Source: Chloroflexota bacterium (GTDB lineage: Bacteria > Chloroflexota > UBA11872). Taken from it: a stretch of DNA of 59,966 nucleotides. The stretch covers positions 1-59,966 of the forward strand of contig DAOUIX010000186.1 in the NCBI GenBank assembly GCA_034423235.1. The letters run 5' to 3'. The notes under the pieces were generated by a model, which did no database searches, was not told where the DNA came from, and was given only the letters and a program-made list of their open reading frames with translations. How positions within the stretch are numbered: position 1 is the stretch's first letter; the number at the start of each line of letters is the position of its first letter. Positions 3,504-48,268 of the stretch are shown piece by piece. The position numbers were made by a program, and so were the translations under genes.

Positions 3504-5299
3504 GACGACGGGCTCCCGACGGCGCTCGGGCTGGCGCCGGCGCTGGCGGCTTCGCGACGCAGGCGCTCGGCCTCCGCTTCCTGGGCCTCCCACATCTCGC
3601 GGTACAGGCCGTCGGTCTCGATCAGGTCCTCGTGGCGTCCACGCTGCTCGATGGCGCCGTGGTCAAGCACGATGATCTCGGCCACGTCACGAACGCTGCG
3701 AATGCGCTGGCTGATGATCAGCGTGGTTCGTCCTTGCTGGGCGGTACGCAGCGCATCCTGGATGGCGCGTTCCGTCCAGGTGTCAACGCTGGAGGTCGAC
3801 TCATCCAGGATCAGGATGCGCGGATCCAACACCAGCGCGCGGGCGATCGCCACCCGCTGCTTCTGACCACCGGACAGGGTCACGCCACGCTCGCCGACCA
3901 CGGTCTCATAGCCGTTGGGCAGCGTCTCAATGAAGCCATGAATCTGAGCCAGCCGGGCTGCCGTCACGACTTGCTCGCGGGTCGCATCGGGCCGGCCGTA
4001 GGCAATGTTGGCGCGAACGGTGTCGGCAAATACGAATGGCTCTTGATGGACGATGCCGATCTGCGCGCGCAGCGAGTCAATGGTCAAGTCGCGCACGTCA
4101 ATGCCGTCCACCAACACCCGTCCGTCGTTGGCATCGTAGAAGCGCGGTAACAGGTTGATAATCGAACTCTTGCCCGAGCCCGTGCCGCCGACGATGCCGA
4201 GCGCCTGACCGGGAGCAATCTCGAAACTGATATCGCTGAGCACCGAATGGTGCTCATGCTGAAAGCCAACGCGCTCGAACGTTACGCGGCCCTCGGCCTT
4301 CGTGAGCGCCTCGGCATGGGGCGATTCCAGCACGTCGGACCGCTCGTCGAGGATGTCGAAGATGCGTTCCCCGGAGGCGACGGCACGAGCAAAACTGTTA
4401 ATGGTCATGCCCAACATGCGGACGGGCATCATCAGCAGCAGCAAGTAGGTGTTGAACGCCACCAGCGTTCCCAGGCTGAAGTTGGGGTCATCGATCACCT
4501 TCCAGCCGCCAAACCAGAGCACCGCCACCTGCCCGGCGCCGAGGATGGCGTTGAAGAGCGGCGCGCGCATGGCGAACATGCGCATCACGGTGACGGTGCG
4601 GTCATCGAGCATGGCGTTGACCGGCGCAAAGCGGCGAGCTTCGGCATCTTCCTGGGCAAACGCGCGCACCACGCGCGCGCCGGCCAGGTTCTCCTGCACC
4701 ACCACATTCACGTCCGCCCAGGCTTCCTGCACCATCTGAAACAGCGGACGGATGCGCTTGGCAAACGATAGGGCGATGCCGACCAGCAGCGGAACGATCA
4801 GGAGCGACAGCAGAGCCAGTTGCCAGTCGATCACAAACAGGATTACCGCCACGCCGCCGGTGACCAGCAAGATCTGCACGATCTGGAAGATGCCCATCGA
4901 CGCGAAGCGGCGAACGCGTTCGACATCGCTGGTCGTACGCGACATCAGTTCGCCCGTGCGGGTCTCGTCGTGGAATCGGAACGAGAGGCTCTGGATGTGC
5001 ATATAGAGCTGATTGCGAATGGCGAAAACCACCCGCTGACTCAGGACCTCGGCCATGAATTGGCGGCCAAACTGCGATAGGCCCTTGAAGGCCGTGAAGG
5101 CGACCACCAGACCTGCAGTGATGTAAAGAACCGACTGAGCGCCTTCCTCAAGACCTCCGTCGATGGCCTGCCGCAAAAACATCGGTATCGCCAGGTCGGC
5201 GACCGTGCCCACCAGCGTGACCGCCAGAGTCCCCAGGCTCAGCCGCCAATGCGGCAGGGCATAGCGAATCAAGCGGGTCAGGATCGTCGTGCTACGCAT
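3500..5299 (-). CDS. Heterodimeric ABC exporter subunit (TM287/TmrB-like)
   Basis: Walker A GGTGSGKS, LSGGQ, ILILDE, H-loop His replaced by Gln (IISQR); start ATG 5299 overlaps MarR end. Confidence 0.92.
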   Translation of the reverse strand: MRSTTILTRLIRYALPHWRLSLGTLAVTLVGTVADLAIPMFLRQAIDGGLEEGAQSVLYITAGLVVAFTAFKGLSQFGRQFMAEVLSQRVVFAIRNQLYMHIQSLSFRFHDETRTGELMSRTTSDVERVRRFASMGIFQIVQILLVTGGVAVILFVIDWQLALLSLLIVPLLVGIALSFAKRIRPLFQMVQEAWADVNVVVQENLAGARVVRAFAQEDAEARRFAPVNAMLDDRTVTVMRMFAMRAPLFNAILGAGQVAVLWFGGWKVIDDPNFSLGTLVAFNTYLLLLMMPVRMLGMTINSFARAVASGERIFDILDERSDVLESPHAEALTKAEGRVTFERVGFQHEHHSVLSDISFEIAPGQALGIVGGTGSGKSSIINLLPRFYDANDGRVLVDGIDVRDLTIDSLRAQIGIVHQEPFVFADTVRANIAYGRPDATREQVVTAARLAQIHGFIETLPNGYETVVGERGVTLSGGQKQRVAIARALVLDPRILILDESTSSVDTWTERAIQDALRTAQQGRTTLIISQRIRSVRDVAEIIVLDHGAIEQRGRHEDLIETDGLYREMWEAQEAEAERLRREAASAGASPSAVGSPSS

Positions 5300-5744
5300 G
5301 CGTAGCCCTTCGTCGAGACCCGAAGTAGCCGGCTTCACGCTTGGCGCTGATGGCGCCGTTCAGCCGGCCGAGGGCTTGCGCAATGTCCGCAAGCTCGGAC
5401 TCGCCGAGTTCATCGAGCGCACCCTCCAGATACTCCACGAAGGCGGCTTCATAGGCCGCCAGGCTCTCAAGCCCGGGAGTCGTGGGTTCGATCAGGAGAT
5501 GGCGACGATCATCGGGATCCTCGGTGCGCGTGGCCAGGCCGGCCACGACCAGACGGTCCACTGTCTGCGACATGGTCTGGCTGCTGAGTAGCTGCCACTC
5601 GGCCAACTGCTTCATCCGTCGCGGACTTCGCCGACGCAGGGCGCGCAGTGTCCGGTATTCCGGTCCGCTGAGCCCCAGGCTGGCTTCGCGGGCCTTGGCG
5701 AAGCGGCGAGCAATGCGCGTAAGGCGCGGACCCAGCACGGCCAA
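5292..5744 (-). CDS. MarR-family transcriptional regulator
   Basis: wHTH pattern LSSQTMSQTVDRLVVAGLATRTEDPDDRR; the frame stays open to ~5786, so the start may be further upstream. Confidence 0.85.
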   Translation of the reverse strand: MAVLGPRLTRIARRFAKAREASLGLSGPEYRTLRALRRRSPRRMKQLAEWQLLSSQTMSQTVDRLVVAGLATRTEDPDDRRHLLIEPTTPGLESLAAYEAAFVEYLEGALDELGESELADIAQALGRLNGAISAKREAGYFGSRRRATHA

Positions 5745-5894: not shown

Positions 5895-6383
5895 TTAGGC
5901 GTTGTCAATGATTGCCAGGAGGTTGGCCGAGTCCGGCCAGTCGCGCTGGTGGGCGCCCACGCTGATAAAGCGAATCCGGCCCGTGGGATCGGCCAGAAAC
6001 ACGCTTGGACGGGCAATGTTCCAAGACTCGAAGTTGAGGCGGACGTAGACACCGTAGCGGCGGATGGCGGCGCGATCGGGATCGGCCAGCAGCGGGAACG
6101 GGAGCGACAGGCCCTTGGCAAAGCGACGCACGCCTTCCGGCGCCTGACCATACACGCCAGCGATCCGGACGTTGCGCCTTTCCCATTCCTCCAGCTCGCC
6201 CGCGAGCTGCGCCAGATAGCTCCGGCAGTTGGGTCACCAGGTATGGCGAAGGAAGATCAGCAGTTGCCACTGGCGGCGGGCCGGAATCTCGCAGAGCTGT
6301 TCGGGAGCCGAAGCCAGCGGCAGGGTGAAGCGGGGCGCGGGGTCCCCGAGCCCGAGCGTTTCCGAGCCCTCGGCACGCGGCAA
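5895..6383 (-). CDS. Selenoprotein, AhpC/TSA (peroxiredoxin-like, thioredoxin fold) with UxxC motif
   Basis: TTG 6383 LPRAEGSETLGLGDPAPRFTLP...LLIFLRHTW-TGA(6236-6234)-PNCRSYLAQL continues in frame into track ORF 5895..6155 (FPLLADPDR...ARPSVFLAD); selB in the same window. Confidence 0.82.
6192..6226 (-). promoter_or_regulatory. Candidate bacterial SECIS hairpin(s) just 3' of UGA
   Basis: GCCGGA-GCUA-UCUGGC (6226-6211) and CAGCUCG-CGGG-CGAGCUG (6209-6192). Confidence 0.5.
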
Positions 6384-6460: not shown

Positions 6461-7270
6461 TCAGGCGACGATGTCGCGACGCCGGAAGATGGCGAGCGAG
6501 AGAACCGCCGTAACGAGCGCGGTGGCGCCCAGCACCAGGGTGTCGCGCCAGATGAAGTCACCGGGCCCCAGTTGGTCCACTGGATTCCAGTAGCCAAAAA
6601 TGCTGATTTTTTCCAGCCACTCCAGGTTGGACGCGATGTCCGCCACGATCAGCAGCACGAACATGATCACGATGATGCCGGCCGCCAGCCCATAGGTTCG
6701 GCCGGGTTGCAGGATCAGGGTGGCCAGCAGTAGCCCGCCGCCGGCGATGGCCAGCGTAAAGACGAGCATCTGCAGGTGGACCAGCAGCAGCTCGAGCGCG
6801 CCCAACTCAACCTCGGCGGCCCAGATTGCCGCGCCGATCATGATGGAAACGTATGACGCGGCAATCACCACGGTGGTGAGTATCAGCAACGCCGCGAGCC
6901 GCGACAGCAGGAAGCGCGTACGGCTGATCGGCGCCGCCAGCAGCACGTCCAGCGTGCCGGATCCAAAGTCGCGCGTGATCAGTCCGGCCCCGAACCAGAC
7001 GCCGAAGTAGGCCAGCACGAGCATCAGCGTGCTGGTGTACTGCGAACTGAAGTAGCTGTAGAACGTGTTCTGTTGGGCCGTCGCCCCCGCGACCTGGGTG
7101 CCGCCAAAGACCTCGCTGCCGCCCATGGCCTGGGTGAGGTCGTCCCAGTTTTCGGCGAACAGCGGCCACAGGCCCATGATCAAGAGGCCCAGCGCGAAGA
7201 TCCCGAAGTCGAACCAGAAGGTGGCCAGCCGCCGGGTTCGCAGAGTCACGCGGATGATGCTGAGGTTCAT
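6461..7270 (-). CDS. ABC-2 type transporter permease
   Basis: About 6 TM segments, DFGSGTLDVLLAAPISRTRFLLSR, C-terminal FRRRDI; overlaps ATPase stop. Confidence 0.85.
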   Translation of the reverse strand: MNLSIIRVTLRTRRLATFWFDFGIFALGLLIMGLWPLFAENWDDLTQAMGGSEVFGGTQVAGATAQQNTFYSYFSSQYTSTLMLVLAYFGVWFGAGLITRDFGSGTLDVLLAAPISRTRFLLSRLAALLILTTVVIAASYVSIMIGAAIWAAEVELGALELLLVHLQMLVFTLAIAGGGLLLATLILQPGRTYGLAAGIIVIMFVLLIVADIASNLEWLEKISIFGYWNPVDQLGPGDFIWRDTLVLGATALVTAVLSLAIFRRRDIVA

Positions 7271-8157
7271 GCGCCACCCTCGCTCTCGTAGTGTTGCAAG
7301 AATGACTCCTCGAAGCTGGGTTCGTCGGTCTCCAGGTCGACCACGGTGTACCGCGCCAGCGCCTTGATCACCGGATCGATCGAGCCGCTGACCTCGAAGC
7401 GCGCCGTGCCGTCCTCGATGCTGATGTCGCTGACCCCCGGGATGACCAGATCGGCAGGCGCCTCGCCGTCAAAGGTGACGGTGACCCGCCGCACGCGCGC
7501 GACGCTGAGGTCGGCCACGGTGTCCACTTGCACCAGCCGCCCCAGGCGCAGGATGCCGACGCGGTCGCAGAGAGCTTCGGCCTCGGACAGCACATGGGTA
7601 GAGAGCAGCACGGTGCGCCCCTCGTCGCGCAGCTCGCTGATGATCTTGCCGAACTCCTGCTGCACCAGCGGGTCGAGACCGCGGGTTGGCTCGTCGACGA
7701 TGTATACGGGCACGTCTTCCTGCAACGCGCGCACGACAACCACCTTCTGGCGATTGCCCATGGAGAGGTCGCCGATCTTCCGGGAAGTGTCCAGTTCCAG
7801 CCGTTCGGTCAACTCATCGCGCCGCTTCCGCGGTGCGTTCGTCAGATTGCCGAAGGCATCCAGATACTGGCCTACTTTCATGAAGGTGTAGAGGCTGCTG
7901 TCGCTGGGCAGGAAGCTCATTGAGTTGCGGGCGGTGGGGCCGTCGCGGTGGACGTCAAGTCCCAGCACCTCGGCCCGCCCGCGCGTGGGGCGCATCAACC
8001 CCATGAGCAATCGGATCGTGGTGGTCTTGCCGGCGCCGTTGGGTCCGAGGTAACCGAAGATCTCGCCCGGACGGACTTTCAGGTTGAGGTCGGAGAGGGC
8101 CTCTACGTCGCCGTAGTGCTTGGTCAGGCCCCATGTCTGGATGGCGATGTCGCTCAT
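7267..8157 (-). CDS. ABC-2 transporter ATP-binding protein
   Basis: MSDIAIQTWGLTKHYG, GPNGAGKTT, LSMGNRQK, IVDEPTRGLDP, STHVLSE. Confidence 0.92.
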   Translation of the reverse strand: MSDIAIQTWGLTKHYGDVEALSDLNLKVRPGEIFGYLGPNGAGKTTTIRLLMGLMRPTRGRAEVLGLDVHRDGPTARNSMSFLPSDSSLYTFMKVGQYLDAFGNLTNAPRKRRDELTERLELDTSRKIGDLSMGNRQKVVVVRALQEDVPVYIVDEPTRGLDPLVQQEFGKIISELRDEGRTVLLSTHVLSEAEALCDRVGILRLGRLVQVDTVADLSVARVRRVTVTFDGEAPADLVIPGVSDISIEDGTARFEVSGSIDPVIKALARYTVVDLETDEPSFEESFLQHYESEGGA

Positions 8158-8353
8158 GGCGGCCCGGAAACCTCCGCTCGCGCCCTCGGGCGGCTGTCCG
8201 GTGGGTTCTCTTGGTCTGGGCACCTCACTGTAGCAATTCGGCTTGTTCCCGCTATGTGGCAAACACTACGGCGGGAGACCGGCGGGCGGGGCGTCCTTGT
8301 GCATTCGAGCGGTCGCCGAGGCGCGCGCCGCCGACGGCCGCCTAGACTGCGCG

Positions 8354-20666: not shown

Positions 20667-21476
20667 TTGACGAACGCACCGATTCCCTGGACCCCGCTTA
20701 GACCTGCGGTCATCCAGAGGCGCCTGCGCGCGCACGGGCTGGATGCGCCGGTGAGGGTGGCGGACCTGACCGGCTCGACCCAAGACGACGCGCTGGCCGG
20801 TCTGCGGTTGGGCGTGCCGCATGGCGCGGTATACGCAGCCGAGCGCCAGTCGCAGGGGCGCGGACGCCGCGGCCGCCGCTGGGTCACGACGCCCGGCGGC
20901 CTGCTGTTCTCCATCGTCTCGCGCATCAGCGCCGCGACGCCCGCTGCCGCCGGACGGCTGACCATCGCCGTCGTGGTGGGGGTTGTGCGCGCAGTCCAGA
21001 CGTGTACGGGCGCCTCGGCTTCCATTAAGTGGCCGAATGACCTGGTGTTCGGCCAGGCCAAGGCCGGGGGCGTGCTGGTGGAAACCCACGGAAACGCTGC
21101 GGTGGTGGGCGTAGGGCTGAATGCATGCAGCGCGGCTGGGATGGCCGAAGGACAGCCCACAACCGCCGTTGCCGCCTATGCGACCCGCTCGTTCGACCGC
21201 AACGACCTGCTGGCGGCCTGCGCGGTAGAGATGCTGGACGCCCTGGCGGCTGAAGGCGCCGCGTGGGACGCCGTCTATGCCGAGTGGGTCCGACGGTCGG
21301 TGCTGGTGGGACGCGAGGTAGAAGTGAGCGGCGCGATTTGTGCGCGCGGCGAGGTGGAGGGGTTCGATCCAGACGGCGCACTGCGGCTGCGCGACACGGC
21401 TGGCGATCTACGACGGATCAGCAGCGGCGCCATTTCGTTGCGCCTGGTCACGGACGCTCAACCTCCGTGTCCATGA
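20667..21476 (+). CDS. birA: Biotin-[acetyl-CoA carboxylase] ligase (no N-terminal HTH)
   Basis: TGSTQDD, AERQSQGRGRRGRRW, IKWPNDL, KAGGVLVE, VGVGLN. Confidence 0.92.
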   Translation: MTNAPIPWTPLRPAVIQRRLRAHGLDAPVRVADLTGSTQDDALAGLRLGVPHGAVYAAERQSQGRGRRGRRWVTTPGGLLFSIVSRISAATPAAAGRLTIAVVVGVVRAVQTCTGASASIKWPNDLVFGQAKAGGVLVETHGNAAVVGVGLNACSAAGMAEGQPTTAVAAYATRSFDRNDLLAACAVEMLDALAAEGAAWDAVYAEWVRRSVLVGREVEVSGAICARGEVEGFDPDGALRLRDTAGDLRRISSGAISLRLVTDAQPPCP

Positions 21477-24400
21477 GCAACCACGTGGCGGCGCTGCGGG
21501 CGCGGGGGGCTCGGTGGCGGCGCCAGGCGGTGCATCCGCCCGTGCCCGCCTGGATGTTGCACACGGTCACGTTTGTCATCGTGCTTGCCGTTGGCGCAAC
21601 CCTACGCTTCGTCGGCCTGGACTGGGACCAGGGCCAGCACCAGCACCCCGACGAGCGTTTCCTTAGCACGGTGCTGCTCCAGATCGAGCCGGCGCCGAAT
21701 CTGTGGACGTACTTCGATCCAGGCCGTTCGCCGCTAAATCCGTTCAACCACGATGTCTCGTTCTTCGTCTATGGCACGTTCCCGCTGTTTCTGGTCGAGT
21801 CGCTGGCGCGAGTGCTGGGGCGCAGCGGTTACGACGAGATCTACCTGGTCGGCCGGACGCTCTCGGCCCTGTTCGACCTTGGGACGGTGGGAGTGGTCTA
21901 CCTGCTGGCTCGACGGCTGCTGGGGCCATGGCCGGCCGTGGTGGCGGCGGCGCTGCTGGCGTTGACGGTGCACTCGATTCAGATCGCGCACTTCTTAGCC
22001 GTCGATACGTTCGCCACCTTCTTTGCCACGCTGACCCTCTGGCTGCTGGTTCGGTACTCGAAGTCCCGGGAGGCGCGCACCCTGGGGCTGGCGGGGATCG
22101 CCACCGGGCTGGCCATGGCCAGCAAGCTGAGCACGAGCCTGCTGCTGCTGTTGTTCGCGGGCTGGTGGACACTGACAGGCGCGCGCGCACGCGTGCTTGG
22201 CGACACCTGGGCGCGCCGCGGGGCATGGCTGGCACATCTGTTGGCATTCGGCGTATTCGCGGCGCTGGGCTTTCGGCTTTTTCAGCCCTACGCGTTCGCC
22301 GAGGCGTGGCCCTGGGACTGGCGGCTAGCACCGGCGTTCACGAGCGCGCTGGCCCAGCAACAGGCCATCCAGACGGGCACGCTGGACTGGCCGCCCGGCA
22401 TCCAGTGGGCGGGCACGATCGGCTGGTTCTTTCCGTTGGAACAGTTCGTCCGCTGGGGCGCCGGTCCGTCGTTTGGCCTGGCGGCGCTGGCCGGGCTGGG
22501 CCTGGCAGCGGTGGGATGGTGGCGCACCCGGAATCACATCCTGGTGCTGCCGCTGGCCTGGGGCGGGCTGAATTTTCTGGTCTTTGGCGCGTTCGTTCTC
22601 AAGACGATGCGCTACTTCCACCCGGTCTACCCCGTGTTGGCGCTGGTGACGGCCTGGGCGTTCGCCTGGGGCTGGAAGCGCCGGCGACGGCACCGTCTGG
22701 CCGCCTGGGTCATCGCTGCGGCACTGGCCACGGTGCTGGGCGCGACGGCGCTCTGGGCGCTGGCCTTCACGCAGATCTACGGCCGTGACCACTCGCGCGT
22801 CGCGGCGTCCGCCTTCATCTACGCCAACGCGCCGCCCGGGTCCACGATTGCCGTGGAGCATTGGGACGACGCGCTGCCTCTGCCGCTGGATGGACTGCAT
22901 CCAGCCCGATTCCGGCAGGTGCAGGTTCGGGTCTACGACCCCGATCGCGAGGCCAAGCGGACGCACCTGATCGAGGCACTCAACCAAGCCGACCTGGTAG
23001 TGCTGGCGAGCGATCGGGGTGCGGCCACCATTCCGCGCATGCCCCAGCGCTATCCGCTGACGGCGCGCTACTACGCGGCCCTGGATGACGGGTCTCTGGG
23101 ATTTGACCTGCTGGCGCGCTTCGAGTCCCGTCCCTCGCTGGGTCCCTGGGTCATCGACGACCGTTCGGCCGAGGAGGCGTTCAGCGTCTACGACCATCCC
23201 ACGGTCTCAATCTACGCGCGCCGCGGCGACGAGACGCCTGCCGACATCCAGCGTGCCCTGGGTTCAGTTGACCTTCGCGGTGTCGTGCAGGTGCTGCCCA
23301 AGGACGCCGTCACCCGCCGCACGGACCTGACGGCAACCGAAGCCGCACGCGTGGAAGCCCAGGCCGGCTGGCCCGCCCAGTTCCAGGAGCGGCCGCTGCG
23401 CGGGGCCGGGGCAGTGGCGGCCTGGTTCGCCGCGGTGTGGCTGGCGGGGCTCCTGACCTGGCCGCTCGTGTGGCTGGCGCTGCGGCGGCTGCCCGACCGC
23501 GGCTACGCAGCCGCGCGGGTGCTGGGGCCGGCGGCTGCGGTCGTACCGGCCTGGTGGCTGGCCAGCCTGGATGTGCTGCCGTTCGACGTGCCGGCGGTTC
23601 TGGTTGGCGCGGGGTTGATGGCCGCGGCCGCGGCCCTGGTGATCTGGCGCCGACGGCAGGTGCTACGCCGATCGCTGCCTGCGGCCGCGGGGCCAGTTCT
23701 GCTCACCGAGCTACTTACGCTCCTGGCATTCGGCGTCATGTTGCTGCTCAGGACTCGCAACCCGGACCTCTGGCATCCGGTCTTTGGCGGCGAGAAACCC
23801 ATGGACGTCGCGCATCTCAACGCCGTAATCCGCAGCCCCGCGTTCCCGCCCCACGACCCGTGGTACGCCGGCAGCCGGCTGAACTACTACTACCTGGGCC
23901 ACGTACCAACGGCGGCCCTGGCCAAGACGCTGGGCGTGCTCCCGGCCACGGCCTATAACCTGGCGGTTGCTGGTGCGTTCGCGGCGGCGGTGACGGCGGT
24001 GTTCGGCGCAGCGGCGGGCCTGTGGTCGCTGCTGGGCCGGCGCTGGCGCGAGGCGGCGGCGGTGGGCACGGCCGCGGTGGTGCTGGTTCTGCTGGCCGGC
24101 AACCTGCACGTGGCCTTGCAGCTGGCGGTGGCCGCCCAGCGGCAGGCGGGCGCGACGGGGATTGCCGCGCTGGAGCTACCAGACTTGCTGTTCAACGGCG
24201 GGCTGGCCCAGGCGTTTGACTTCTGGGCCGCCACGCGGGTGATCCCCCGGACGGTGAACGAGTTCCCCTGGTTCACGTTCATGTACGGCGACCTGCATCC
24301 GCACCTCATGAACTTCGCTCACACTGGCACGGCGTTGATCGGCGCCGTCGGCATCGTAGGCCTCGGAGAGGCCACGCGGCGCCAGCGTGTGACCGGTTGG

Positions 24401-25738
24401 CGCCCGTGGGCAGCCGGGCTGGTGTTTCAGACATTCGTCCTGGCACTGCACCGGGTCGTCAACCCGTGGGACTACCCCACCTACACCGTCATTACGCTCG
24501 CCTCGCTCGCGTACGCGCTCTGGCGGAGCGGCCGGCTCGATTCACGAGGGTTGGCCGCGACGCTGCTCGGCGTTGGCGTGGGCCTGACGGTGGTCTCGCA
24601 GCTACTCTTTCAGCCGTTTCATGCGGCCTACGTGGACTTCTACGGAGGCTTGGATCTCACCCCCAACACGACGCCCGCGGTCCAGTGGCTGCTCATCTTC
24701 GGGCTGCCGATCGCGGTGCTCGCATCGTACGCAGCGCTGCGACTGGTCGAGAGCCTGCGGGAACGGCCGCCACAGGTCGTCCTGAAGGCTTCGGGGAGCA
24801 TCGCCGGTGTACTTCTAGTAGCGGGACTCATCGGCGCCGGCGCCGACTGGTCGACCCGCGCGCTTATCGTCGGCCTGCTGATTCTGGGCGCCAGCGCGGC
24901 CTGGCGAGTGCGTAGCCAGCCCGCGGCCCTGGCGCCCCTGGCCCTGCTGCTGGCGGGCGTGGGGCTGACGGCAGCCCCGGAGTTCATCGTGGTGCGCGAT
25001 GACATCGGCCGGCTCAACACGATCTTCAAGTCATACCTGCAAGCCTGGACGTTCCTGGGTCTTGGCGCAGCGCTGGCCCTGCCGTACCTGGCGCGTGTGC
25101 TGCGGCCTCGGCGCGGTGGCCGCTTTCTTTCGGCGCGGGTTGCGTGGGCCGCCAGCCTGGCGCTGCTCGCGGCCGCGGCTCTGTCGTATCCGCTGCTGGC
25201 CATGCCTCACAAGCTGGACCTGCGCATTCAGCCGCTCCCCGCGACGCTGGACGGCGAAGCCTTCATGGAAGGCGGTCTGATCTACGATCAGGGCGTGCCG
25301 GTCGAACTCAGCGCCGACCGCCGCGCCATTGAATGGCTGCGTGGGAACCTGGTTGGCGCGCCGGTGCTGGCGGAGACGCCAACCACCATCTATCGCTGGG
25401 GCGGGCGAATCTCGGTGTATACAGGCCTACCCACCATCATGGCCTGGGACTGGCACGCCAAGCAGCAACATTGGGGCTTTGTCCATGAGGTCGAGGCGCG
25501 CTTCGACGACGCGCGCGAGCTGTTTGCGACCAGGGATCACCGTCGGGCGCGGGCGCTACTCTCGACGTTCAACGTCGGTCTGATCTACGTTGGCGAACTG
25601 GAACGGAGCATCTATGCGGCCGAGTCACTGGCAAAGTTCGACCGCATGGAGGCGTTTGGGATTCGCGCGGTCTACCGCGACGGCGATACGGTGATCTATC
25701 GCGTGGATCCCAGCAGTCTATCCCCGCCGGCCGGATGA
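21473..25738 (+). CDS. Large membrane GT-C protein: PMT/GT39-like domain fused to DUF2298 (Chlor_Arch_YYY)
   Basis: HPDERF, YGTFPL, WHPVFGGEKPMD, PPHDPWYAG..LNYYYLGH, NEFPWFTFMYGDLHPH, DDIGRLNTIFKSY; ATG 21473 overlaps birA stop. Confidence 0.88.
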   Translation: MSNHVAALRARGARWRRQAVHPPVPAWMLHTVTFVIVLAVGATLRFVGLDWDQGQHQHPDERFLSTVLLQIEPAPNLWTYFDPGRSPLNPFNHDVSFFVYGTFPLFLVESLARVLGRSGYDEIYLVGRTLSALFDLGTVGVVYLLARRLLGPWPAVVAAALLALTVHSIQIAHFLAVDTFATFFATLTLWLLVRYSKSREARTLGLAGIATGLAMASKLSTSLLLLLFAGWWTLTGARARVLGDTWARRGAWLAHLLAFGVFAALGFRLFQPYAFAEAWPWDWRLAPAFTSALAQQQAIQTGTLDWPPGIQWAGTIGWFFPLEQFVRWGAGPSFGLAALAGLGLAAVGWWRTRNHILVLPLAWGGLNFLVFGAFVLKTMRYFHPVYPVLALVTAWAFAWGWKRRRRHRLAAWVIAAALATVLGATALWALAFTQIYGRDHSRVAASAFIYANAPPGSTIAVEHWDDALPLPLDGLHPARFRQVQVRVYDPDREAKRTHLIEALNQADLVVLASDRGAATIPRMPQRYPLTARYYAALDDGSLGFDLLARFESRPSLGPWVIDDRSAEEAFSVYDHPTVSIYARRGDETPADIQRALGSVDLRGVVQVLPKDAVTRRTDLTATEAARVEAQAGWPAQFQERPLRGAGAVAAWFAAVWLAGLLTWPLVWLALRRLPDRGYAAARVLGPAAAVVPAWWLASLDVLPFDVPAVLVGAGLMAAAAALVIWRRRQVLRRSLPAAAGPVLLTELLTLLAFGVMLLLRTRNPDLWHPVFGGEKPMDVAHLNAVIRSPAFPPHDPWYAGSRLNYYYLGHVPTAALAKTLGVLPATAYNLAVAGAFAAAVTAVFGAAAGLWSLLGRRWREAAAVGTAAVVLVLLAGNLHVALQLAVAAQRQAGATGIAALELPDLLFNGGLAQAFDFWAATRVIPRTVNEFPWFTFMYGDLHPHLMNFAHTGTALIGAVGIVGLGEATRRQRVTGWRPWAAGLVFQTFVLALHRVVNPWDYPTYTVITLASLAYALWRSGRLDSRGLAATLLGVGVGLTVVSQLLFQPFHAAYVDFYGGLDLTPNTTPAVQWLLIFGLPIAVLASYAALRLVESLRERPPQVVLKASGSIAGVLLVAGLIGAGADWSTRALIVGLLILGASAAWRVRSQPAALAPLALLLAGVGLTAAPEFIVVRDDIGRLNTIFKSYLQAWTFLGLGAALALPYLARVLRPRRGGRFLSARVAWAASLALLAAAALSYPLLAMPHKLDLRIQPLPATLDGEAFMEGGLIYDQGVPVELSADRRAIEWLRGNLVGAPVLAETPTTIYRWGGRISVYTGLPTIMAWDWHAKQQHWGFVHEVEARFDDARELFATRDHRRARALLSTFNVGLIYVGELERSIYAAESLAKFDRMEAFGIRAVYRDGDTVIYRVDPSSLSPPAG

Positions 25739-26197: not shown

Positions 26198-26920
26198 ATG
26201 CACGCTGACCTGACCGGCGCCTTCACGAGAGTGACAGACGCGCTGGGCGACGATCCGAACCTGATCACCACGCTGGAGGTCGTGGACACGCTCAACGAGA
26301 TGGTGGAGGGCGTGCATCCAATCCTGCGCTGCCCCAGCGGTTGCGCCCGCTGTTGTTACCAGCAGGTCTTTATCAGCGAAGAGGAATGGGCCATCCTGCT
26401 GCCGGCGCTGCACCGCGACTCCACCGCCGACGAGCGGCGCCGAATCGTGCGGCGCGCCCGCCGACTCCTCGACCGTAAGCGCGGTCCGCTGCGGCGCGCG
26501 GTACGCGCCCGGAACATCGAGGAACTGAGTCGGTTAACCATGAATGTGGACCGGCGTCGTGTGCAGCGGTGCGTGCTGCTGACCAGCGATAACCGTTGTG
26601 CCGGGTATACCGGCCGGCCCATGGTCTGTCGCGCGTTCGGTCGCGTATCGCACAGCCTCGATCACCCCATGCTGTGCAAGATCTTCCTGGACCGGCTGTC
26701 GGACGCGGGCACTTCGCACCGGGACTTGCAGCTGGCCGACTTCGGCCCGGTTCGCTCGGCCTATCTGCTCGGCGCCGCGGAGGACCTGGGCTTCACCCTG
26801 CTCCCGATCTTCGTGGTGCTGCACGCGGACGCCGACGGCGACCTGCTGCGGGAGCCGCAGCCGCTGCCGCGCGACGGCAGTTGGCCGATATTGTCCCGCG
26901 AGGAGGTCGTCCACCTTTGA
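26198..26920 (+). CDS. YkgJ/UPF0153 (CxxCxxCC) cysteine-cluster protein
   Basis: CPSGCARCC...CVLL..NRCAGYTGRPMVCRAFG. Confidence 0.82.
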   Translation: MHADLTGAFTRVTDALGDDPNLITTLEVVDTLNEMVEGVHPILRCPSGCARCCYQQVFISEEEWAILLPALHRDSTADERRRIVRRARRLLDRKRGPLRRAVRARNIEELSRLTMNVDRRRVQRCVLLTSDNRCAGYTGRPMVCRAFGRVSHSLDHPMLCKIFLDRLSDAGTSHRDLQLADFGPVRSAYLLGAAEDLGFTLLPIFVVLHADADGDLLREPQPLPRDGSWPILSREEVVHL

Positions 26921-28827
26921 CCGAGTCCGCAGACGCACTGGCCCCGATGACCGTGGGCACAGCCGGTCATGTGGATCACGGCAAATCCACCCTGGTTGAA
27001 GCGCTGACCTCCATCTTTCCGGATCGACTGGCGGAAGAGCGCGAACGGGGATTGACTATCGACCTGGGCTTCGCCTGGTTCACTCTGCCCAGCGGACGCG
27101 AGGTGTCAGTGGTGGACGTGCCCGGGCACGAACGCTTCGTGTCAAACATGCTGGCCGGCGTGGGCGGGATCGACGCGGTGCTATTGGTCATTGCGGCGGA
27201 CGAGGGGGTGATGCCACAAACCCGAGAGCACCTGGACATCATCGACCTGCTGGAGATCGACACGGGCGTGGTGGCGCTGACCAAGTCCGACCTTGTCGAC
27301 GACGAGTGGGTGGAGCTGGTTGAGGAAGACGTGCGCGATGTCCTGGCAGGAAGCCGTCTGCGCGATGCGCCCATCGTTCATGTCTCAGCCCACGCCCGGT
27401 CTGGGCTGGACCCGCTGGTTGAGACGATCGACCGGGTGTTGGCCAGCCTTCGCCCAAGGCCGGAGGGCGGCGGCGCGCGCATTCCAATTGACCGAGTCTT
27501 CACGATGCCCGGGTTCGGCACCGTGATCACCGGCACGCTCTCGGGTGGACCGCTGCGCGTGGGCGATCAGCCCAGTCTCCATCCAGGTACACGCAGCGTC
27601 CGGGTCCGGGGCTTGCAGTCCCATCAAACAGCCCTCGACACCGCCCAGCCCGGACGCCGGGTCGCGGTCAATTTGGGCGGTACAAACCCTTCGCAGATCC
27701 GGCGGGGTGACGTGCTGGCGGTCGCGGGCGCGGTGTTCGAGACTCGCCGCATCGACGCCCGGCTGCGCATGCTCCCCTCGGCCCCGCGGGCGCTCAAGCC
27801 AGGGGAGGATGTGGCGCTGCACATCGGCGCGGCCTCACGCGTGGCGCGGCTCCGGCTGCTGGAGAGCGACCCCATTCCGCCGGGCGGGTCGGGCTGGGTC
27901 CAGTGGCGCCTGGACGCCCCCATCGCCGCGCGCCGGGGCGACCGTTATGTGATCCGGAGGCTGTCTCCCGCAGCCACCGTTGGCGGCGGCAGCGTGGCTC
28001 GCGCCCTGGCACGCCACGCGCCTCGAGGAGACTCGGCGACACTTGCCACCTTGTCACGGGCCGCGGCCGGCGATCCGCTTGCGTTGGTGCGCGATGCGCT
28101 GGCCGACGACCTGGTCACACCAGGCGACTTGTCGCGCCGAACCGAACTTGACACGGAGACCCTCGAGCGAGCCGTCGCCGAGCTCACCGCGGCCGGTGAA
28201 GCGGGAGTGCTGCGCAGCTACCTGGGAAGCACCCAGACCATCGTACGGTTGACTTCGGCGTTGCTGGCGGCGCTACGGAAGCACCACGAGTCCGATCCGG
28301 GAGCAGCCGGTCTCAGAAGCTCCGACCTCGCCCGCACGCTTGACCTGCCGGCCAACGCCGTAGCCGAACTTGCGGCAGCCGCTGCCGCGGGCGGATCGGT
28401 GCACATCGACGGGCCGTGTATCGCCCTGGCCGGTCACCGAGTCGAACTCAACGAGGCCGAGAAGCGAACGGCGCTTCGGCTGCTGGCCCGGCTCGATCAC
28501 GGCGGCTCGGCGCCGCCCTCGCTGACCGAGGCGCTGACGGCCAGCGGAGGAACTCCCAGGCTGGCAGCGGCGCTGGCCCAGGACGGGCGGCTGGTGCTGC
28601 TGGCGCCCGATATCGCGCTCTCGCGCAAAACCTACGATGTTTGGCTTCACGCCGTTCGCGGCCTGTTCGAAACGACCCCGGCGGTGACCGTTCGCGAAGT
28701 GCGGGACGCGCTTGGCACCAGCCGCAAATACGCGCTGGCGTTGCTCGAATACCTGGACAGTCGCGCGGTGACTCGTCGCGTGGGCGACGCGCGCCTGTGG
28801 CTCGGCAAGGACTCCAAGCGCGCCTAG
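26917..28827 (+). CDS. selB: Selenocysteine-specific elongation factor SelB
   Basis: VGTAGHVDHGKS, ERERGLTIDLGFAW, DVPGHERFVSNMLAG, C-terminal winged helix RDALGTSRKYALALLEYLD; start TTG 26917 or ATG 26947. Confidence 0.95.
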   Translation: MTESADALAPMTVGTAGHVDHGKSTLVEALTSIFPDRLAEERERGLTIDLGFAWFTLPSGREVSVVDVPGHERFVSNMLAGVGGIDAVLLVIAADEGVMPQTREHLDIIDLLEIDTGVVALTKSDLVDDEWVELVEEDVRDVLAGSRLRDAPIVHVSAHARSGLDPLVETIDRVLASLRPRPEGGGARIPIDRVFTMPGFGTVITGTLSGGPLRVGDQPSLHPGTRSVRVRGLQSHQTALDTAQPGRRVAVNLGGTNPSQIRRGDVLAVAGAVFETRRIDARLRMLPSAPRALKPGEDVALHIGAASRVARLRLLESDPIPPGGSGWVQWRLDAPIAARRGDRYVIRRLSPAATVGGGSVARALARHAPRGDSATLATLSRAAAGDPLALVRDALADDLVTPGDLSRRTELDTETLERAVAELTAAGEAGVLRSYLGSTQTIVRLTSALLAALRKHHESDPGAAGLRSSDLARTLDLPANAVAELAAAAAAGGSVHIDGPCIALAGHRVELNEAEKRTALRLLARLDHGGSAPPSLTEALTASGGTPRLAAALAQDGRLVLLAPDIALSRKTYDVWLHAVRGLFETTPAVTVREVRDALGTSRKYALALLEYLDSRAVTRRVGDARLWLGKDSKRA

Positions 28828-31156: not shown

Positions 31157-31510
31157 GATGCTACTCCTCGGTGTCACAGCGCAGGGAATGACTGGCCGCC
31201 GTGGCCGGTCCGACGGCTTCCGATCACCTTCGACATTGCGACATCAGCGGTGGCCGCAACTGGCCCTCGCCGCGCGCGGGCGGAGTTTCGGGACGACGCA
31301 GCCGGGCGCTGATATTACGCGACAGATAACTGGAATGAGCGGCGACACCGCCGTTCCAACCAGTTCGTGAGCATTCGTTTCAATGCGGCCAAGGCTGCGT
31401 GGCCTAAACTTCCACCAAGCTGGGCGTGCGGTGGGCAGCCGCTGAATCCGCGGACTGGAGCGTGCGACGGATGAACGCTCCGGTGGCCGCGCCCCTGCCG
31501 ACGTGAGCCG

Positions 31511-32371
31511 ATGACCACCACGTCCCCGCCCGCGTCCGTACCCTCCCTGGCTGCGGTCATGCAGCGTGCGGGTGGAGAGAATTTTCCCGTGGCGTCGCGG
31601 CTGCTGCCGGGCCAGCTGCGTCGACACCTCCACAACATCTACGGCTTCGCCCGCCTGACCGATCAGTTGGGCGACTACGCCGAAGGCGACCGGCTGGCGT
31701 TGCTGGACTGGCTGGATGGCGAAGTCGATGCCGTCTACAACGGCGGCCTGCCCAGTCACGACGTGATGCGGCGCATTGTTCCGACGGTGGCGCGCTATTC
31801 GATCCCGGAAGCGCCGTTCCGGGCACTCATCAACGCAAATCGACAGGACCAGCGGGTCAGCCGCTACGCCACGTTCGACGACCTGGTCGCCTACTGCGAA
31901 CTCTCCGCCAATCCAGTCGGCCACCTGGTGCTCTACGTCTTTGAGGCGGCCACGCCGGAACGGTTCTGGCTCTCGGACCTGATCTGCACGGCCCTGCAAC
32001 TGACCGAGCACTGGCAGGACGTGGCCGAGGACTTGGAAATGGACCGCGTCTATCTACCCCAGGAGGACCTGGACCGCTTCAACTGCTCGGTTGACGTGAT
32101 CGCCGAACGCCGGCCCTCAAGCGAGTTTCGGCAGTTGATGCAGTTCGAGGTCGACCGCGCGTGGGGCCTTTTCGATCGGGGCGCGACGCTGGTGCGGACC
32201 CTTCCCGGCGTGCGCGGCATGGCCATCGCGGCGTTCATCGAAGGCGGACGCGCCGCCCTGCAGGCGATTCGCGAGGCGGACTACGACGTCCTCACGCAGT
32301 CGCCGCGTCCCCATGCACGGGCCAGAGTCCTGGCGGCGCTGCGCGTCATGCGTATCGCGCTGGACTGGTAG
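31511..32371 (+). CDS. hpnC: Squalene synthase HpnC
   Basis: ENFPVASRLL, IYGFARLTDQLGD, YCELSANPVGHLVL, HWQDVAED. Confidence 0.92.
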   Translation: MTTTSPPASVPSLAAVMQRAGGENFPVASRLLPGQLRRHLHNIYGFARLTDQLGDYAEGDRLALLDWLDGEVDAVYNGGLPSHDVMRRIVPTVARYSIPEAPFRALINANRQDQRVSRYATFDDLVAYCELSANPVGHLVLYVFEAATPERFWLSDLICTALQLTEHWQDVAEDLEMDRVYLPQEDLDRFNCSVDVIAERRPSSEFRQLMQFEVDRAWGLFDRGATLVRTLPGVRGMAIAAFIEGGRAALQAIREADYDVLTQSPRPHARARVLAALRVMRIALDW

Positions 32372-32374
32372 CCG

Positions 32375-33211
32375 ATGGACCCGGCCGCGGCCTACGCCCA
32401 CTGCGAACACATCACGCGCACGCAGGCCGGCAATTTCTACTGGGGCATCCGCCTCCTGCCGGGGCCGAAGCGACGGGCGCTCTGCGCGGTCTACGCTCTG
32501 GCGCGTGCGATCGACGACATCGGCGACGGCAACCTGCCCACCGAGACCAAGGCGAGGGCGCTGTGCGAGGCGCGAGAACGGCTGGGGGAGATCGGCCCGG
32601 ATGTCGACGAGCCGGTGCTGGCTGCGTTGGGGCACGCGTCCCAGCGGCTGCCGATTCCGATGGCTGCCTTTGGCGAACTTATCGACGGCGTCGAGATGGA
32701 CGTGCGGGGCACGACCTATGAGACGTTCGACGACTTGGTGGTGTATTGCCGCCGGGTGGCAGGCACCATCGGCCGACTCTCGCTGGGCGTGTTCGGCGCC
32801 GAGAACTTGGAACGCGCCGCGCCGCTGGCCGACGCCCTGGGTGTGGCGCTGCAACTCACCAACATCCTGAGGGACGTTCGGGAAGACTTTCGGAACGGTC
32901 GTATCTATCTGCCGCGGGAGGATCTTGAGCGTTTTGATTGCACGTTGGACCCTGACAGTCCCCAGGCTCCGAGATTCCCGGAGATGATGCGCTTCCAGAC
33001 AAGCCGCGCCGCCGAGTGGTTCGACGAGGGCCTGCGGCTGCGGCCAATGCTGGATCCGCGCAGTTCCGCCTGCGCCGGAGCGATGGCGGGCATCTACCGT
33101 CGCGTGCTTCAACGCATTGAGCAGGACCCCGCCGCCGTGATGCAAGGACGCGTGGCGCTGCCGGCCTGGGAGAAGGCGTTGGTCGCCGCAAAGAGCCTGG
33201 CGGGCGGGTGA
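32375..33211 (+). CDS. hpnD: Presqualene diphosphate synthase HpnD
   Basis: NFYWGIRLLP, ARAIDDIGD, LQLTNILRDVRED..GRIYLP. Confidence 0.92.
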   Translation: MDPAAAYAHCEHITRTQAGNFYWGIRLLPGPKRRALCAVYALARAIDDIGDGNLPTETKARALCEARERLGEIGPDVDEPVLAALGHASQRLPIPMAAFGELIDGVEMDVRGTTYETFDDLVVYCRRVAGTIGRLSLGVFGAENLERAAPLADALGVALQLTNILRDVREDFRNGRIYLPREDLERFDCTLDPDSPQAPRFPEMMRFQTSRAAEWFDEGLRLRPMLDPRSSACAGAMAGIYRRVLQRIEQDPAAVMQGRVALPAWEKALVAAKSLAGG

Positions 33212-34560
33212 GCGGCCCGCGGGTCGTGGTAGCTGGCGGTGGGCTGGCCGGAATCAGCGCGGCCCTTGCGCTGGCGGACGCGGGATTGTCGGTCACCCTG
33301 CTGGAAGCGCGCGGACGCCTGGGAGGGGCAACCTACTCGTTTCAGCGAGACGGGTTCTGGCTCGACAACGGCCAGCACGTTTTTTTGCGCTGTTGCACGG
33401 CCTATCGAGCGTTCATCAAGCGCATCGGATCCGGCGACCTGGTGACCCTGCAGCGACGGCTGGACATCCCCGTGATCCACCCCGACCGTGGTACCAGCCG
33501 GCTGGCTCGCTCGGGCCTGCCGGCACCTCTGCATTTGGGGCCGAGCCTTGCCGCCTACCGCCACCTGAGCCGCCTGGACAAGCTGCACGTCGCGCGTACG
33601 GCTGTGGCGCTGGGGAGGCTCGACCTCGGCGACCGAAGCCTCGACGAGCAGACGTTCGGTCACTGGCTGCGTCAACGCGGTGCGACGTCGCGGTCGCTGG
33701 AAGCGCTCTGGGACCTGATCGTGCTGCCAACCCTCAACCTGCCGTCCGACGAGGCTTCGCTCTGGCTCGGCGCCATGGTGTTTCAGGTCGGGCTGCTGAC
33801 CGACGGCCCCGCCGCGGATCTCGGTTACACAACCGTTCCGCTTGGCCAGGCGCACGGCGACCGAGCAGCCGCCGCCCTCATCGCATCGAAGGTCGATGTG
33901 CATCTCGACTCTGCGGTTTCCGCCATCGAGCTATCGGAGGATGCCCGTGTCCACGTGCGAGTGGGGGGGCGGTGCATTGCGGCGGCGGCCCTGGTCCTGG
34001 CCGTGCCGCACGAGCAGGCCGCCCGACTCGTCCCGGCGAAGGTTCATGCAGAATCCAAGTCCTTCGCGGACCTGGGGCACAGCCCGATTGTGAACTTGCA
34101 CGTGATCTACGACCGGCGGGTCATGGATCACCCATTCGCCGCCGGCGTGGACACGCGGGTGCAGTGGGTGTTTGACCGCAGCGCCGCGGCGGGCTTGACT
34201 ATGGGCCAGTGTCTGGCCGTTTCGCTTTCGGGCGCCACGGCATATGCCGCGCGCCCGACCGAGGAGTTGCGCGCGATGTTCCTTCCCGAACTCGCGCGGC
34301 TGTTCCCTCGAGCCGCCGAAGCGCGCGTGAGCGCGTTCTATGTCACGCGAGAGCCCCGGGCGACCTTTCGGCCCGTGCCCGGCACGTTGCGGGTGCGGCC
34401 GCGCGCCACGACTGCCGACCCGCGCATTACGTTGGCCGGCGCCTGGACCGACACTGGCTGGCCGGCCACGATGGAAGGGGCCGTCCGCAGCGGCCGCCGG
34501 GCGGCCCGCAGCACACTCCTGGCCCTGGGCCGTGAACGGGGCCTGCCGACGGCCGCATGA
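33208..34560 (+). CDS. hpnE: Hydroxysqualene dehydroxylase HpnE (FAD)
   Basis: VVVAGGGLAG, DNGQHVFLRC, AGAWTDTGWPATMEGAVRSG. Confidence 0.93.
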   Translation: MSGPRVVVAGGGLAGISAALALADAGLSVTLLEARGRLGGATYSFQRDGFWLDNGQHVFLRCCTAYRAFIKRIGSGDLVTLQRRLDIPVIHPDRGTSRLARSGLPAPLHLGPSLAAYRHLSRLDKLHVARTAVALGRLDLGDRSLDEQTFGHWLRQRGATSRSLEALWDLIVLPTLNLPSDEASLWLGAMVFQVGLLTDGPAADLGYTTVPLGQAHGDRAAAALIASKVDVHLDSAVSAIELSEDARVHVRVGGRCIAAAALVLAVPHEQAARLVPAKVHAESKSFADLGHSPIVNLHVIYDRRVMDHPFAAGVDTRVQWVFDRSAAAGLTMGQCLAVSLSGATAYAARPTEELRAMFLPELARLFPRAAEARVSAFYVTREPRATFRPVPGTLRVRPRATTADPRITLAGAWTDTGWPATMEGAVRSGRRAARSTLLALGRERGLPTAA

Positions 34561-36452: not shown

Positions 36453-36539
36453 CGGCGGTAACGCCCCGGGAACAGCTGTTGAAAACACACTTGGCGCCCC
36501 TTGCGCCCGCGCAGTCTCAGCATTACCAGGGCCAAGAGA

Positions 36540-36564
36540 CATACCTGGGTATAATCAGAGTATG
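36540..36564 (+). promoter_or_regulatory. Candidate TA promoter/operator
   Basis: TATAAT at 36550-36555 overlapping inverted repeats ATACC-TG-GGTAT and CATAC...GTATG. Confidence 0.5.
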
Positions 36565-36798
36565 AAAACGGCCATTTCACTGCCGGACGAACTCTTCGAG
36601 GCGGCCGACGCGCTGGCCACGGAACTCGGCGTTTCTCGCAGCAAGCTGTATGCCACCGCCGTCGCCGAGTATCTCGACCGGCGCCGTGATGAACGCATCA
36701 CGGAACTGCTGGACGAGGTCTACCGTGAGCAGCCGAGTCAGTTGGCGCCCGAACTGCGCCGCATGCAGGGGCGCAGTCTCGCGGCTGACGAGTGGTAG
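36562..36798 (+). CDS. RHH antitoxin (MazE/ChpI-like)
   Basis: MKTAISLPDELFEAAD...LGVSRSKLYATAVAEYL; overlaps toxin start. Confidence 0.88.
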   Translation: MKTAISLPDELFEAADALATELGVSRSKLYATAVAEYLDRRRDERITELLDEVYREQPSQLAPELRRMQGRSLAADEW

Positions 36799-37136
36799 TC
36801 GAGCGGGGCGACATCTGGTGGGCCGACCTGGACGAGCCGCGAGGATCTGAGCCTGGGTTTCGACGTCCCGTGCTCATCGTGCAGGCCGAGGCATTCAACC
36901 GTAGCCGGCTGCAAACGGTTCTGGGGCTAGCGCTGACGACAAACCTGCGCCTCGCTGCCGCTCCAGGGAATGTCCTGCTTTCGGCGTCGGAATCCGGGCT
37001 CCCTCGACCTTCCGTGGTCAACGTGACGCAACTGATGACAGTGGACCGCGCCTTTCTCTCGGAAGCCGCTGGTCGGGTGCCACCCCGACTGATGGCGCGT
37101 ATTGACGACGGCCTACGTCTGGTTCTCGGCCTCTAG
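36792..37136 (+). CDS. mazF: PemK/MazF-family endoribonuclease toxin
   Basis: ERGDIWWADL...GSEPGFRRPVLIVQAEAFN...GLPRPSVVNVTQLMTVDR. Confidence 0.92.
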   Translation: MVVERGDIWWADLDEPRGSEPGFRRPVLIVQAEAFNRSRLQTVLGLALTTNLRLAAAPGNVLLSASESGLPRPSVVNVTQLMTVDRAFLSEAAGRVPPRLMARIDDGLRLVLGL

Positions 37137-37203
37137 GACTCTGGACGCCTGCGTACTCCCGTCGTAGGTTTGGCGGCCACCTCTCGAAGGTGAACGGTTT
37201 TTC

Positions 37204-38214: not shown

Positions 38215-38223
38215 GGCGTCCGC

Positions 38224-38976: not shown

Positions 38977-39093
38977 GCCAGATAGACCATTCGCCACACG
39001 CGGGCCGGGGAGCGCTAGTATTGCGCGAATCCCCATGCAACGGGCAGTATCGATCAGCGCCCGCCGCTCGGGTGTTTGCAAAGGGGGATCGCA

Positions 39094-40959: not shown

Positions 40960-40969
40960 GGCCCTGCCG

Positions 40970-47849: not shown

Positions 47850-48268
47850 TCAGCTCGATAGGCGACGAGCGTCAGGTGGTTGCGGCCTTCGTCCCGCCGA
47901 TAGGTCAATTCGTCCATCAGCTTGCGTACCAGGAACACGCCCAACCCGCCAATCGGTCGTTCATCCATCGGCGCGTTGACATCCGGAACGGGAGCGTCGG
48001 TCAGTGGGTCGAACGGCTTGCCGTCGTCCACCATTTCGATCGTCAATGCCTCCTCGGTTGAGCTGAACGTGAACGAGATCTCGTGCAGCCCGCCGTCATG
48101 GCCGTGGTTGATCGTGTTGATTGCCAGTTCTTCCAGCACCAGGTTGACCTTGCCAACCAGCGCCAGCGACCACTCGTCCTCTTCGCCCAGCTTCTCCACG
48201 GCCTCGGCTAGCCGGGTCAACTCGTCCAGCCTGGTTTCGATCGTCAGGGTGCGCGTCAGGCTCATCAC
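47846..48268 (-). CDS. RsbW/SpoIIAB-like anti-sigma factor Ser kinase
   Basis: LVLEELAINTINHG, VDDGKPFDP, GGLGVFLV. Confidence 0.9.
   Translation of the reverse strand: MMSLTRTLTIETRLDELTRLAEAVEKLGEEDEWSLALVGKVNLVLEELAINTINHGHDGGLHEISFTFSSTEEALTIEMVDDGKPFDPLTDAPVPDVNAPMDERPIGGLGVFLVRKLMDELTYRRDEGRNHLTLVAYRAE

Follow-up and report, generated by a model that had tools for sequence, protein, structure and literature searches.

An in-frame UGA at the active site of a Prx-like redox protein from a Chloroflexota bacterium probably encodes selenocysteine

Introduction

In a stretch of 59,966 nucleotides from a Chloroflexota bacterium (contig DAOUIX010000186.1 of assembly GCA_034423235.1; hereafter the window), a minus-strand reading frame for a redoxin-like protein is crossed by one TGA codon, exactly where related proteins have the first cysteine of their active site. 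Does this TGA end a gene, mark a gene that has decayed, or encode selenocysteine (Sec) in an enzyme that gene callers overlook? Prx-like selenoproteins with a UxxC motif have been catalogued since 2004–2005 (PMC1088965, PMC2398784, PMC13188914), and the GOS ocean survey counted 225 Sec forms and 2,740 Cys forms of the class that it called "Prx-like 1" (PMC2398784). Here we combine comparative analysis of the codon, of the RNA that follows it and of the encoded protein, and we find it very likely that positions 6383–5895 of the minus strand are one intact gene, encoding a real selenoprotein by Sec recoding and missed by annotation. The features discussed below are collected in Table 1.

Table 1. 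Predicted features of the selenoprotein locus and of the selB gene; positions are those of the window
Feature	Position	Strand	Remarks
Predicted selenoprotein CDS, Prx-like/AhpC-TSA thioredoxin-fold, U50-P-N-C53	5895..6383	minus	162 aa + TAA; residues 1-162 collinear with 20 loci from Chloroflexota genomes
TTG start codon	6381..6383	minus	the one in-frame start past the upstream stop
In-frame UGA, predicted selenocysteine codon, residue 50	6234..6236	minus	TGA in 21/21 clade sequences
U-P-N-C redox motif, with R46-H-T-W before it	6225..6236	minus	alignment with ResA and BCP
Hairpin 1 (hp1), UGCCGGA[GCUA]UCUGGCG	6210..6227	minus	-9.7 kcal/mol; loop starts 13 nt after UGA
Hairpin 2 (hp2), CAGCUCG[CGGG]CGAGCUG	6192..6209	minus	-10.0 kcal/mol; 7-bp stem; loop starts 31 nt after UGA
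ABC-2 family permease, immediately upstream, 78-nt gap	6461..7270	minus	Pfam ABC2_membrane_2; conserved neighbour
ABC transporter ATPase, partner of the permease	7267..8262	minus	Pfam ABC_tran; synteny conserved
MarR-family regulator, downstream	5292..5744	minus	Pfam MarR_2; variable neighbour
Two ABC exporter genes beyond MarR	5338-3500 and 3593-1665	minus	
selB, selenocysteine-specific elongation factor	26947..28827	plus	TIGR00475 equivalog, full-length profile match

Results

A single reading frame across the UGA

Translation of the minus strand gives *TLPRAEGSETLGLGDPAPRF...LLIFLRHTW*PNCRSYLAQL...AIIDNA*, and the frame that opens at the TTG codon (6383–6381) reads (M)PRAEGSETLGLGDPAPRFTLPLASAPEQLCEIPARRQWQLLIFLRHTW-TGA-PNCRSYLAQLAGELEEW...AIIDNA-TAA, with a single internal stop and with the TAA at 5897–5895. 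The location, the frame, the lone TGA at 6236–6234 and the 162-aa length put forward in the original prediction all agree with this translation. The W-U-P-N-C motif is present in it as well, and the mechanical ORF list splits the gene into a 49-aa ORF (6383–6234) and an 86-aa ORF (6155–5895). The N-terminus requires a correction: the ORF begins (M)PRAEGSETLGLGD, and the sequence quoted earlier (LGLGD...) is real but begins nine residues into the ORF and not at its start. Contigs from three independently assembled sequencing runs carry the identical 489-nt CDS, TGA included, which rules out an assembly error; the runs SRR10406098-105 contain this identical gene. When the whole window was searched for TGA codons flanked on either side by coding-like sequence, the only returns were the candidate TGA and one antisense shadow of mutS2.

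The UGA column is conserved across relatives

In a search of 5.8 billion proteins we found 11 close homologues, every one of them called as a C-terminal fragment of 91–109 aa, covering 52–64% of the query. The orthologous DNA was read directly: with one genome fetched per species, 20 loci from Chloroflexota metagenome-assembled genomes (MAGs; 65–90% identity) were collinear with residues 1–162, and codon 50 was TGA in 20 of 20 (21/21 clade sequences). The start column held TTG, GTG or ATG in every orthologue. A metagenome scan yielded 58 relatives that cover the Sec column at 35–88% identity, 55 with TGA and three with Cys (L040, L043 and L069, motif G-T-W-C-P-T-C-R), which brings the DNA-verified relatives to 78, of which 75 have TGA and the other three Cys. 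HMMER, run exhaustively over 1.84 billion representatives with the window-encoded C-terminal part as the query and E <= 1e-3, returned 563 matches, a mixture of ~100-aa fragments and ~160-aa full-length proteins; the Sec column was Cys in all 20 full-length relatives examined. The family motif is F-x-R-G/H-T-W-[U/C]-P-x-C-R, which among these full-length Cys proteins reads F-x-R-G-T-W-C-P-x-C-R. Homologues with neither Cys nor Sec at this column would have told against the original prediction, and TGA or Cys is instead kept throughout the relatives.

The pattern of substitution extends this result to the whole frame. Variable sites at the first, second and third codon positions numbered 12, 5 and 38 upstream of the TGA and 21, 17 and 85 downstream of it, and this third-position-rich variation on both sides indicates that both halves are under purifying selection in this frame. 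Together, these comparisons show that codon 50, a UGA placed where the family W-C-P-x-C active site has Cys, is conserved as a sense codon and that, judged by its retention, the TGA is under selection.

Two hairpins follow the UGA

The two compact hairpins predicted to start 7 nt past the UGA were both located, and comparative tests back their paired state. Folding of the single sequence was uninformative: the 71 nt after the UGA did not exceed chance relative to shuffles (z = -0.69; 67% GC DNA), so that a single-sequence fold is no evidence in such GC-rich DNA and the support for the hairpins is comparative. We compared synonymous variation among 20 distinct sequences of the window's clade at degenerate codons with an invariant amino acid, and found it in 3 of 15 codons at positions 51–66 versus 86 of 97 elsewhere in the gene (Fisher p = 1e-7). 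This suppression at codons 51–66 points to RNA-level constraint on the 48 nt that follow the UGA; hp2 lies inside the suppressed zone. Across 18 diverse sequences, 91% of cells were paired, versus 31–41% when the partners were slid by 1–3 columns. For hp1, 90.5% of cells were paired in these 18 sequences and two pairs had changed on both sides (C-G to G-C in L037 and L038, A-U to G-C in L031). For hp2, the paired fraction was 92.1%, one-sided changes kept wobble pairing (A-U to G-U, G-C to G-U), and the loop variants CGGG, CGGU and CGUG all kept the G[G/U] pattern; hp2 covariation within the window's own clade is of the wobble type only, and the protein sequence encoded there, L-A-G-E-L, places a constraint of its own on the hp2 codons. 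RNAalifold independently recovered both helices. Taken together, the comparative tests show an RNA constraint that forms two hairpins directly downstream of the UGA.

[quoted passage not shown] For these reasons we chose hp2 over hp1: hp2 is probably the SelB-binding SECIS core, with hp1 as an auxiliary helix, and hp1 as the canonical SECIS was set aside as first choice and kept as a rival. The expectation of a SECIS-type element after the UGA is thus borne out by a hairpin, hp2, that is SECIS-compatible, conserved and under RNA-level constraint. An Rfam search over 6100–6320 gave no match at E <= 10, and no bacterial SECIS match came from the release searched.

More distant members of the family have hairpins of their own. 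In the sediment/freshwater clade (motif G-T-W-U-P-H-C), the hairpin is GUAUAUG[GGU]CAUAUAC, at 21 nt from the UGA. Its pairing reaches 99%, and two pairs have changed in a compensatory way (U-A to C-G and A-U to G-C), each by one synonymous and one conservative amino-acid change. A third clade has UCGCGC[GGUU]GCGCGA, 25 nt after the UGA. The natural Cys forms L040 and L069 are without the hairpin.

A separate observation concerns the sediment/freshwater clade as a whole, in which the Cys forms (L040, L043 and L069) lack GUAUAUG-GGU-CAUAUAC and all Sec forms (in the range L044–L081) have it. These Cys and Sec forms amount to a natural series of Sec/Cys exchange together with SECIS gain or loss within one family.

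A peroxiredoxin-like scaffold with a thioredoxin-type motif

With U replaced by C, the product matched Pfam AhpC-TSA (PF00578) over residues 13–139 with 82.4 bits (E = 3.2e-23; cutoff 26), in line with the AhpC/TSA-like character originally assigned to it, and also matched Pfam Redoxin. The nearest solved structures by sequence were BCP of Aeropyrum pernix (2cx3, E = 2.3e-11) and Bacillus ResA (3c71), and the alignment with both spans the full length of the product. W-U-P-N-C falls residue for residue on W-C-P-H-C of ResA; against F-S-P-V-C of A. pernix BCP, Sec50 falls on Ser and Cys53 on the peroxidatic Cys. From these two alignments we describe the protein as a Prx-like scaffold with a thioredoxin-type redox motif. 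The Prx motif P-x-x-x-T/S-x-x-C is not reproduced: R46 stands in for Pro and U50 for Thr/Ser, and C53 alone is kept. Read directly from the sequence, the N-terminus MPRAEGSETLGLGDPAPRF contains no hydrophobic stretch, signal or anchor, which suggests that the selenoprotein is cytoplasmic.

Natural variants bear on which residue matters. Two Sec forms have U-P-N-A (L041:1501-1977 and L045:1501-1968) and one Cys form has C-P-H-A (protein P0022). In all three variants residue 50 is kept and residue 53, the second, 'resolving' Cys, has become Ala. Because natural variants lose residue 53 and never residue 50, it looks as if U50 rather than C53 is the essential residue, and the U-P-N-A and C-P-H-A lineages hint at a one-residue redox mechanism.

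Selenocysteine machinery

The claim that SelB is encoded at 26917–28827 holds: this ORF matched TIGR00475 with 327.9 bits (cutoff 242.25) over profile positions 1–579 of 581 and is complete. The likely start is ATG 26947, with a protein that begins MTVGTAGHVDHGKST. ARAGORN detected no tRNA of any kind in the 60-kb window and no tRNA-Sec in the fetched flanks of 60 related loci; Rfam over the whole window gave no match at gathering score and hence no tRNA-Sec there. NCBIfam and Pfam scans, each of ten large ORFs, turned up neither selA nor selD in the window, and neither gene was found in the fetched flanks. To our knowledge, SelB has no role outside Sec insertion, so an intact SelB argues that the Sec trait is present. 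Sec users have already been reported among Chloroflexi (PMC1794560).

Next to selB, on the same strand, a 240-aa CxxCxxCC-domain protein (PF03692, putative zinc/iron-chelating) is encoded at 26198–26920; it ends ~27 nt before the likely selB ATG and may be co-transcribed with selB. A long ARAGORN tRNA-Arg(CCU) of 94 nt, an unusual length, was seen in the flank of a related locus (L020:11533-11626).

Genomic neighbourhood

The ATPase–permease pair lies upstream on the same strand in every clade a/b locus, down to 38% permease identity. In L024–L032 the gap between permease and selenoprotein gene is about 10 nt or less, and in L018 the upstream stop abuts the ATG. The 78-nt gap in the window contains no promoter-like site and no convincing terminator-like site; a promoter-like site lies at 5839–5811, ahead of MarR. 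The downstream MarR and exporter genes accompany only about half of the related loci. Co-transcription with the upstream ABC-2 transporter, as originally proposed, is plausible on the strength of this conserved same-strand adjacency. Clustering of neighbours in the sediment clade gave no recurring partner gene, which makes the ABC-2 linkage clade-specific.

On two contigs of one MAG, RHO2_bin_72, the selenoprotein gene occurs in non-identical copies (L004 and L016), with 90% and 87% identity to the window gene and with different downstream neighbours; paralogy or strain mixing could account for them.

Elsewhere in the window, the region 31475–42016 resembles a cluster for hopanoid/isoprenoid biosynthesis, with HpnE at 33121–34557 (TIGR03467, 403 bits), HpnH at 37168–38211 (TIGR03470, 520 bits), a polyprenyl diphosphate synthase at 40946–42013 and further ORFs at 31511–33211. 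A very large ORF (21263–25738) encodes a polytopic membrane protein of about 1,490 aa. For the minus-strand ORFs 53343–54446 and 58293–59537 (~370–415 aa), which have good coding statistics, there was no NCBIfam match at E <= 1e-10. Two further same-frame TGA junctions were rejected as recoding sites, since each separates ordinary adjacent genes: one at 13959 (SDR-type reductase) and one at 49501 (paired response regulators). At 48265–50406 (minus), two tandem paralogous response-regulator genes share a frame with a TGA between them; by eye, from the translation, the first has a STAS-like C-terminal part and the second is PP2C/SpoIIE-like, and they look like ordinary adjacent genes rather than a case of recoding.

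Discussion

Proposed mechanism and alternative readings

The sequence comparisons allow us to propose how the gene might be expressed and how its product might work. SelB-GTP-Sec-tRNA(Sec) would bind hp2 through its CGGG loop, 31 nt after the UGA, and insert selenocysteine at codon 50, with hp1 serving as a clade-specific helper or spacer. In the protein, U50 would be the attacking nucleophile and would cycle with C53 via a selenenylsulfide; the substrate that the pair would reduce could be a disulfide, a sulfenic acid or a peroxide, and a thiol reductant, of thioredoxin type or other, could recycle the enzyme. In the Chloroflexota lineage, the selenoprotein gene would be expressed together with the upstream ABC-2 transporter.

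Other readings of the UGA have to be set against Sec insertion. Had a Cys-type redoxin been inactivated by mutation to TGA, the locus would be a nonsense pseudogene, a reading that fits the annotation of a C-terminal fragment only, by gene callers and by NCBI, and the failure to find the accessory Sec genes (selA, selD and tRNA-Sec) in the window. However, the TGA is fixed in 75/78 relatives across 35–90% identity, third codon positions dominate the variation upstream of it, the start column is conserved, the N-terminal part shows no scattered frameshifts or stops in the relatives, and SelB is present; the comparative data effectively refute a pseudogene, and its probability is close to nil. 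It is also extremely improbable that the UGA is a genuine stop, with a 49-aa peptide before it and a C-terminal redoxin fragment re-initiated internally, for example at GTG 6155. Although a downstream 86-aa ORF with a GTG start exists, full-length Cys relatives have the active-site motif and the fold's first beta-alpha unit, both of which the fragment would lack, internal starts are not conserved (the called fragments range from 78 to 112 aa), and hairpins directly after the UGA suit recoding and not termination. Readthrough without selenium, by near-cognate insertion of Trp or Cys or under a reassigned code, would be compatible with the Cys that relatives functionally tolerate at this site, but many of the window's stop-to-stop coding segments end in TGA, which shows that the code has not been reassigned; a SECIS-compatible hairpin and SelB are both present, and the hairpins are lost in Cys forms. 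We consider such readthrough very improbable. Sec insertion at codon 50 is thus the reading that we retain.

Within Sec insertion, the part played by each hairpin and by each redox residue can be read in more than one way. It is possible, though we doubt it, that the SelB-binding element is hp1, whose loop G-N-U-A starts 13 nt past the UGA, or both hairpins jointly, rather than hp2 alone: hp1 shows clearer both-sided pair changes than hp2 (L037, L038 and L031), a re-registered hairpin occupies its place in L028, and the hp1 loop begins with G in the window's clade. The 13-nt spacing lies outside 16–37 nt, however, the clade-b loop AACCAA of L026 is without an early G, and the hp2 loop hardly varies and preserves G[G/U]; hp2 therefore stays our candidate for the SECIS core. 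The protein, for its part, might be a true peroxiredoxin, in which C53 is peroxidatic, as its alignment with the Prx Cp would have it, and Sec merely assists. The best PDB match, the BCP/PrxQ peroxidase (2cx3, E = 2e-11), places C53 on Cp, and the invariant R125 of A-R-P is close to where Prx has its catalytic Arg; against this, the Pro and Thr of P-x-x-x-T-x-x-C are replaced by R46 and U50, and natural variants lose C53 but never residue 50, and we hold a true peroxiredoxin to be unlikely. More speculatively, the gene may represent a distinct, uncatalogued, Sec-dominant subfamily (R-x-T-W-U-P-x-C-R ... YGVYVRxNFESWNxARP), which in marine and sponge-associated Chloroflexota would be linked functionally to an ABC-2 exporter and read via a two-hairpin SECIS variant. 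Its one indispensable redox residue would be Sec, placed as the N-terminal residue of a thioredoxin-type motif, as the existence of natural U-x-x-A forms would suggest. We offer this combination tentatively; if true, it implies a one-selenol mechanism unlike that of classical Prx and Trx.

Relation to known selenoproteins and redox families

What is new here is the gene itself and, at most, an uncatalogued subfamily; the kind of selenoprotein is already known, and the window gene leaves the understanding of how selenoproteins work unchanged. With the annotation corrected, related Chloroflexota MAGs and many metagenome lineages from sediment and freshwater regain a redox enzyme, and the gene documents selenium use in the Chloroflexota, sediment and freshwater lineages that carry the gene. 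The Sec, Cys and U-x-x-A forms and the three SECIS hairpin solutions within one family are material for the study of Sec/Cys exchange and of SECIS evolution. NCBI lists the orthologues as "redoxin domain-containing protein" or "peroxiredoxin family protein", with 106–112 aa and without the active site. These names for truncated proteins accord with the lack of an NCBIfam model for the subfamily: none reached its own cutoff for any clade member tested.

Three established groups come close to the window protein without including it. The best NCBIfam match was the SelL-related redox protein (NF040769), and with SelL (Prx-like 2) the window protein shares the Prx-like fold and a CxxC/UxxC-type motif; its score of 64.1 bits, and those of 53–75 bits for other clade members, lie below the curated cutoff of 120, and we rejected membership on that ground. 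The BCP/PrxQ peroxiredoxins, represented by A. pernix BCP (2cx3), have the same fold and length and place their peroxidatic Cys at C53, but Arg46 and Sec50 replace the Pro and Thr/Ser of P-x-x-x-T/S-x-x-C; with the peroxidatic motif thus absent and NF006960 at 35.4 bits versus a cutoff of 140, this assignment was rejected too. The extracytoplasmic thiol-disulfide oxidoreductases ResA, TlpA and CcmG (3c71) have a W-C-P-x-C that aligns exactly with W-U-P-N-C, whereas the window protein is without their N-terminal signal or anchor and has an inserted Y-G-V-Y-V-R-x-N-F-E-S-W-N segment. A ResA/TlpA-type protein was excluded accordingly, given the missing export/anchor segment and a score of 27.9 bits with NF002854 (cutoff 170).

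By its stated definition, the class that the predicted selenoprotein fits is that of the Prx-like thiol:disulfide oxidoreductases (PF00578, UxxC/UxxU), the 'Prx-like 1' of the GOS survey, with WP_010940744.1 as the reference (PMC1088965, PMC2398784, PMC9312934, PMC13188914). It fits because the domain, the motif, the Cys homologues and the bSECIS are all found: both have the PF00578 domain, in which a thioredoxin-like U-x-x-C replaces the T-x-x-U/C of Prx, Cys homologues at the Sec position and a bacterial SECIS hairpin after the UGA, and in the class, as here, the function is a predicted one. The reference members come mostly from Deltaproteobacteria, and the window gene is placed among them by the definition of the class. 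It differs from the class in the signature of its subfamily, F-x-R-x-T-W-U-P-x-C-R ... Y-G-V-Y-V-R-x-N-F-E-S-W-N-x-A-R-P, in the predominance of Sec over Cys forms among its close relatives (55 to 3) and, in Chloroflexota, in being locked beside an ABC-2 transporter.
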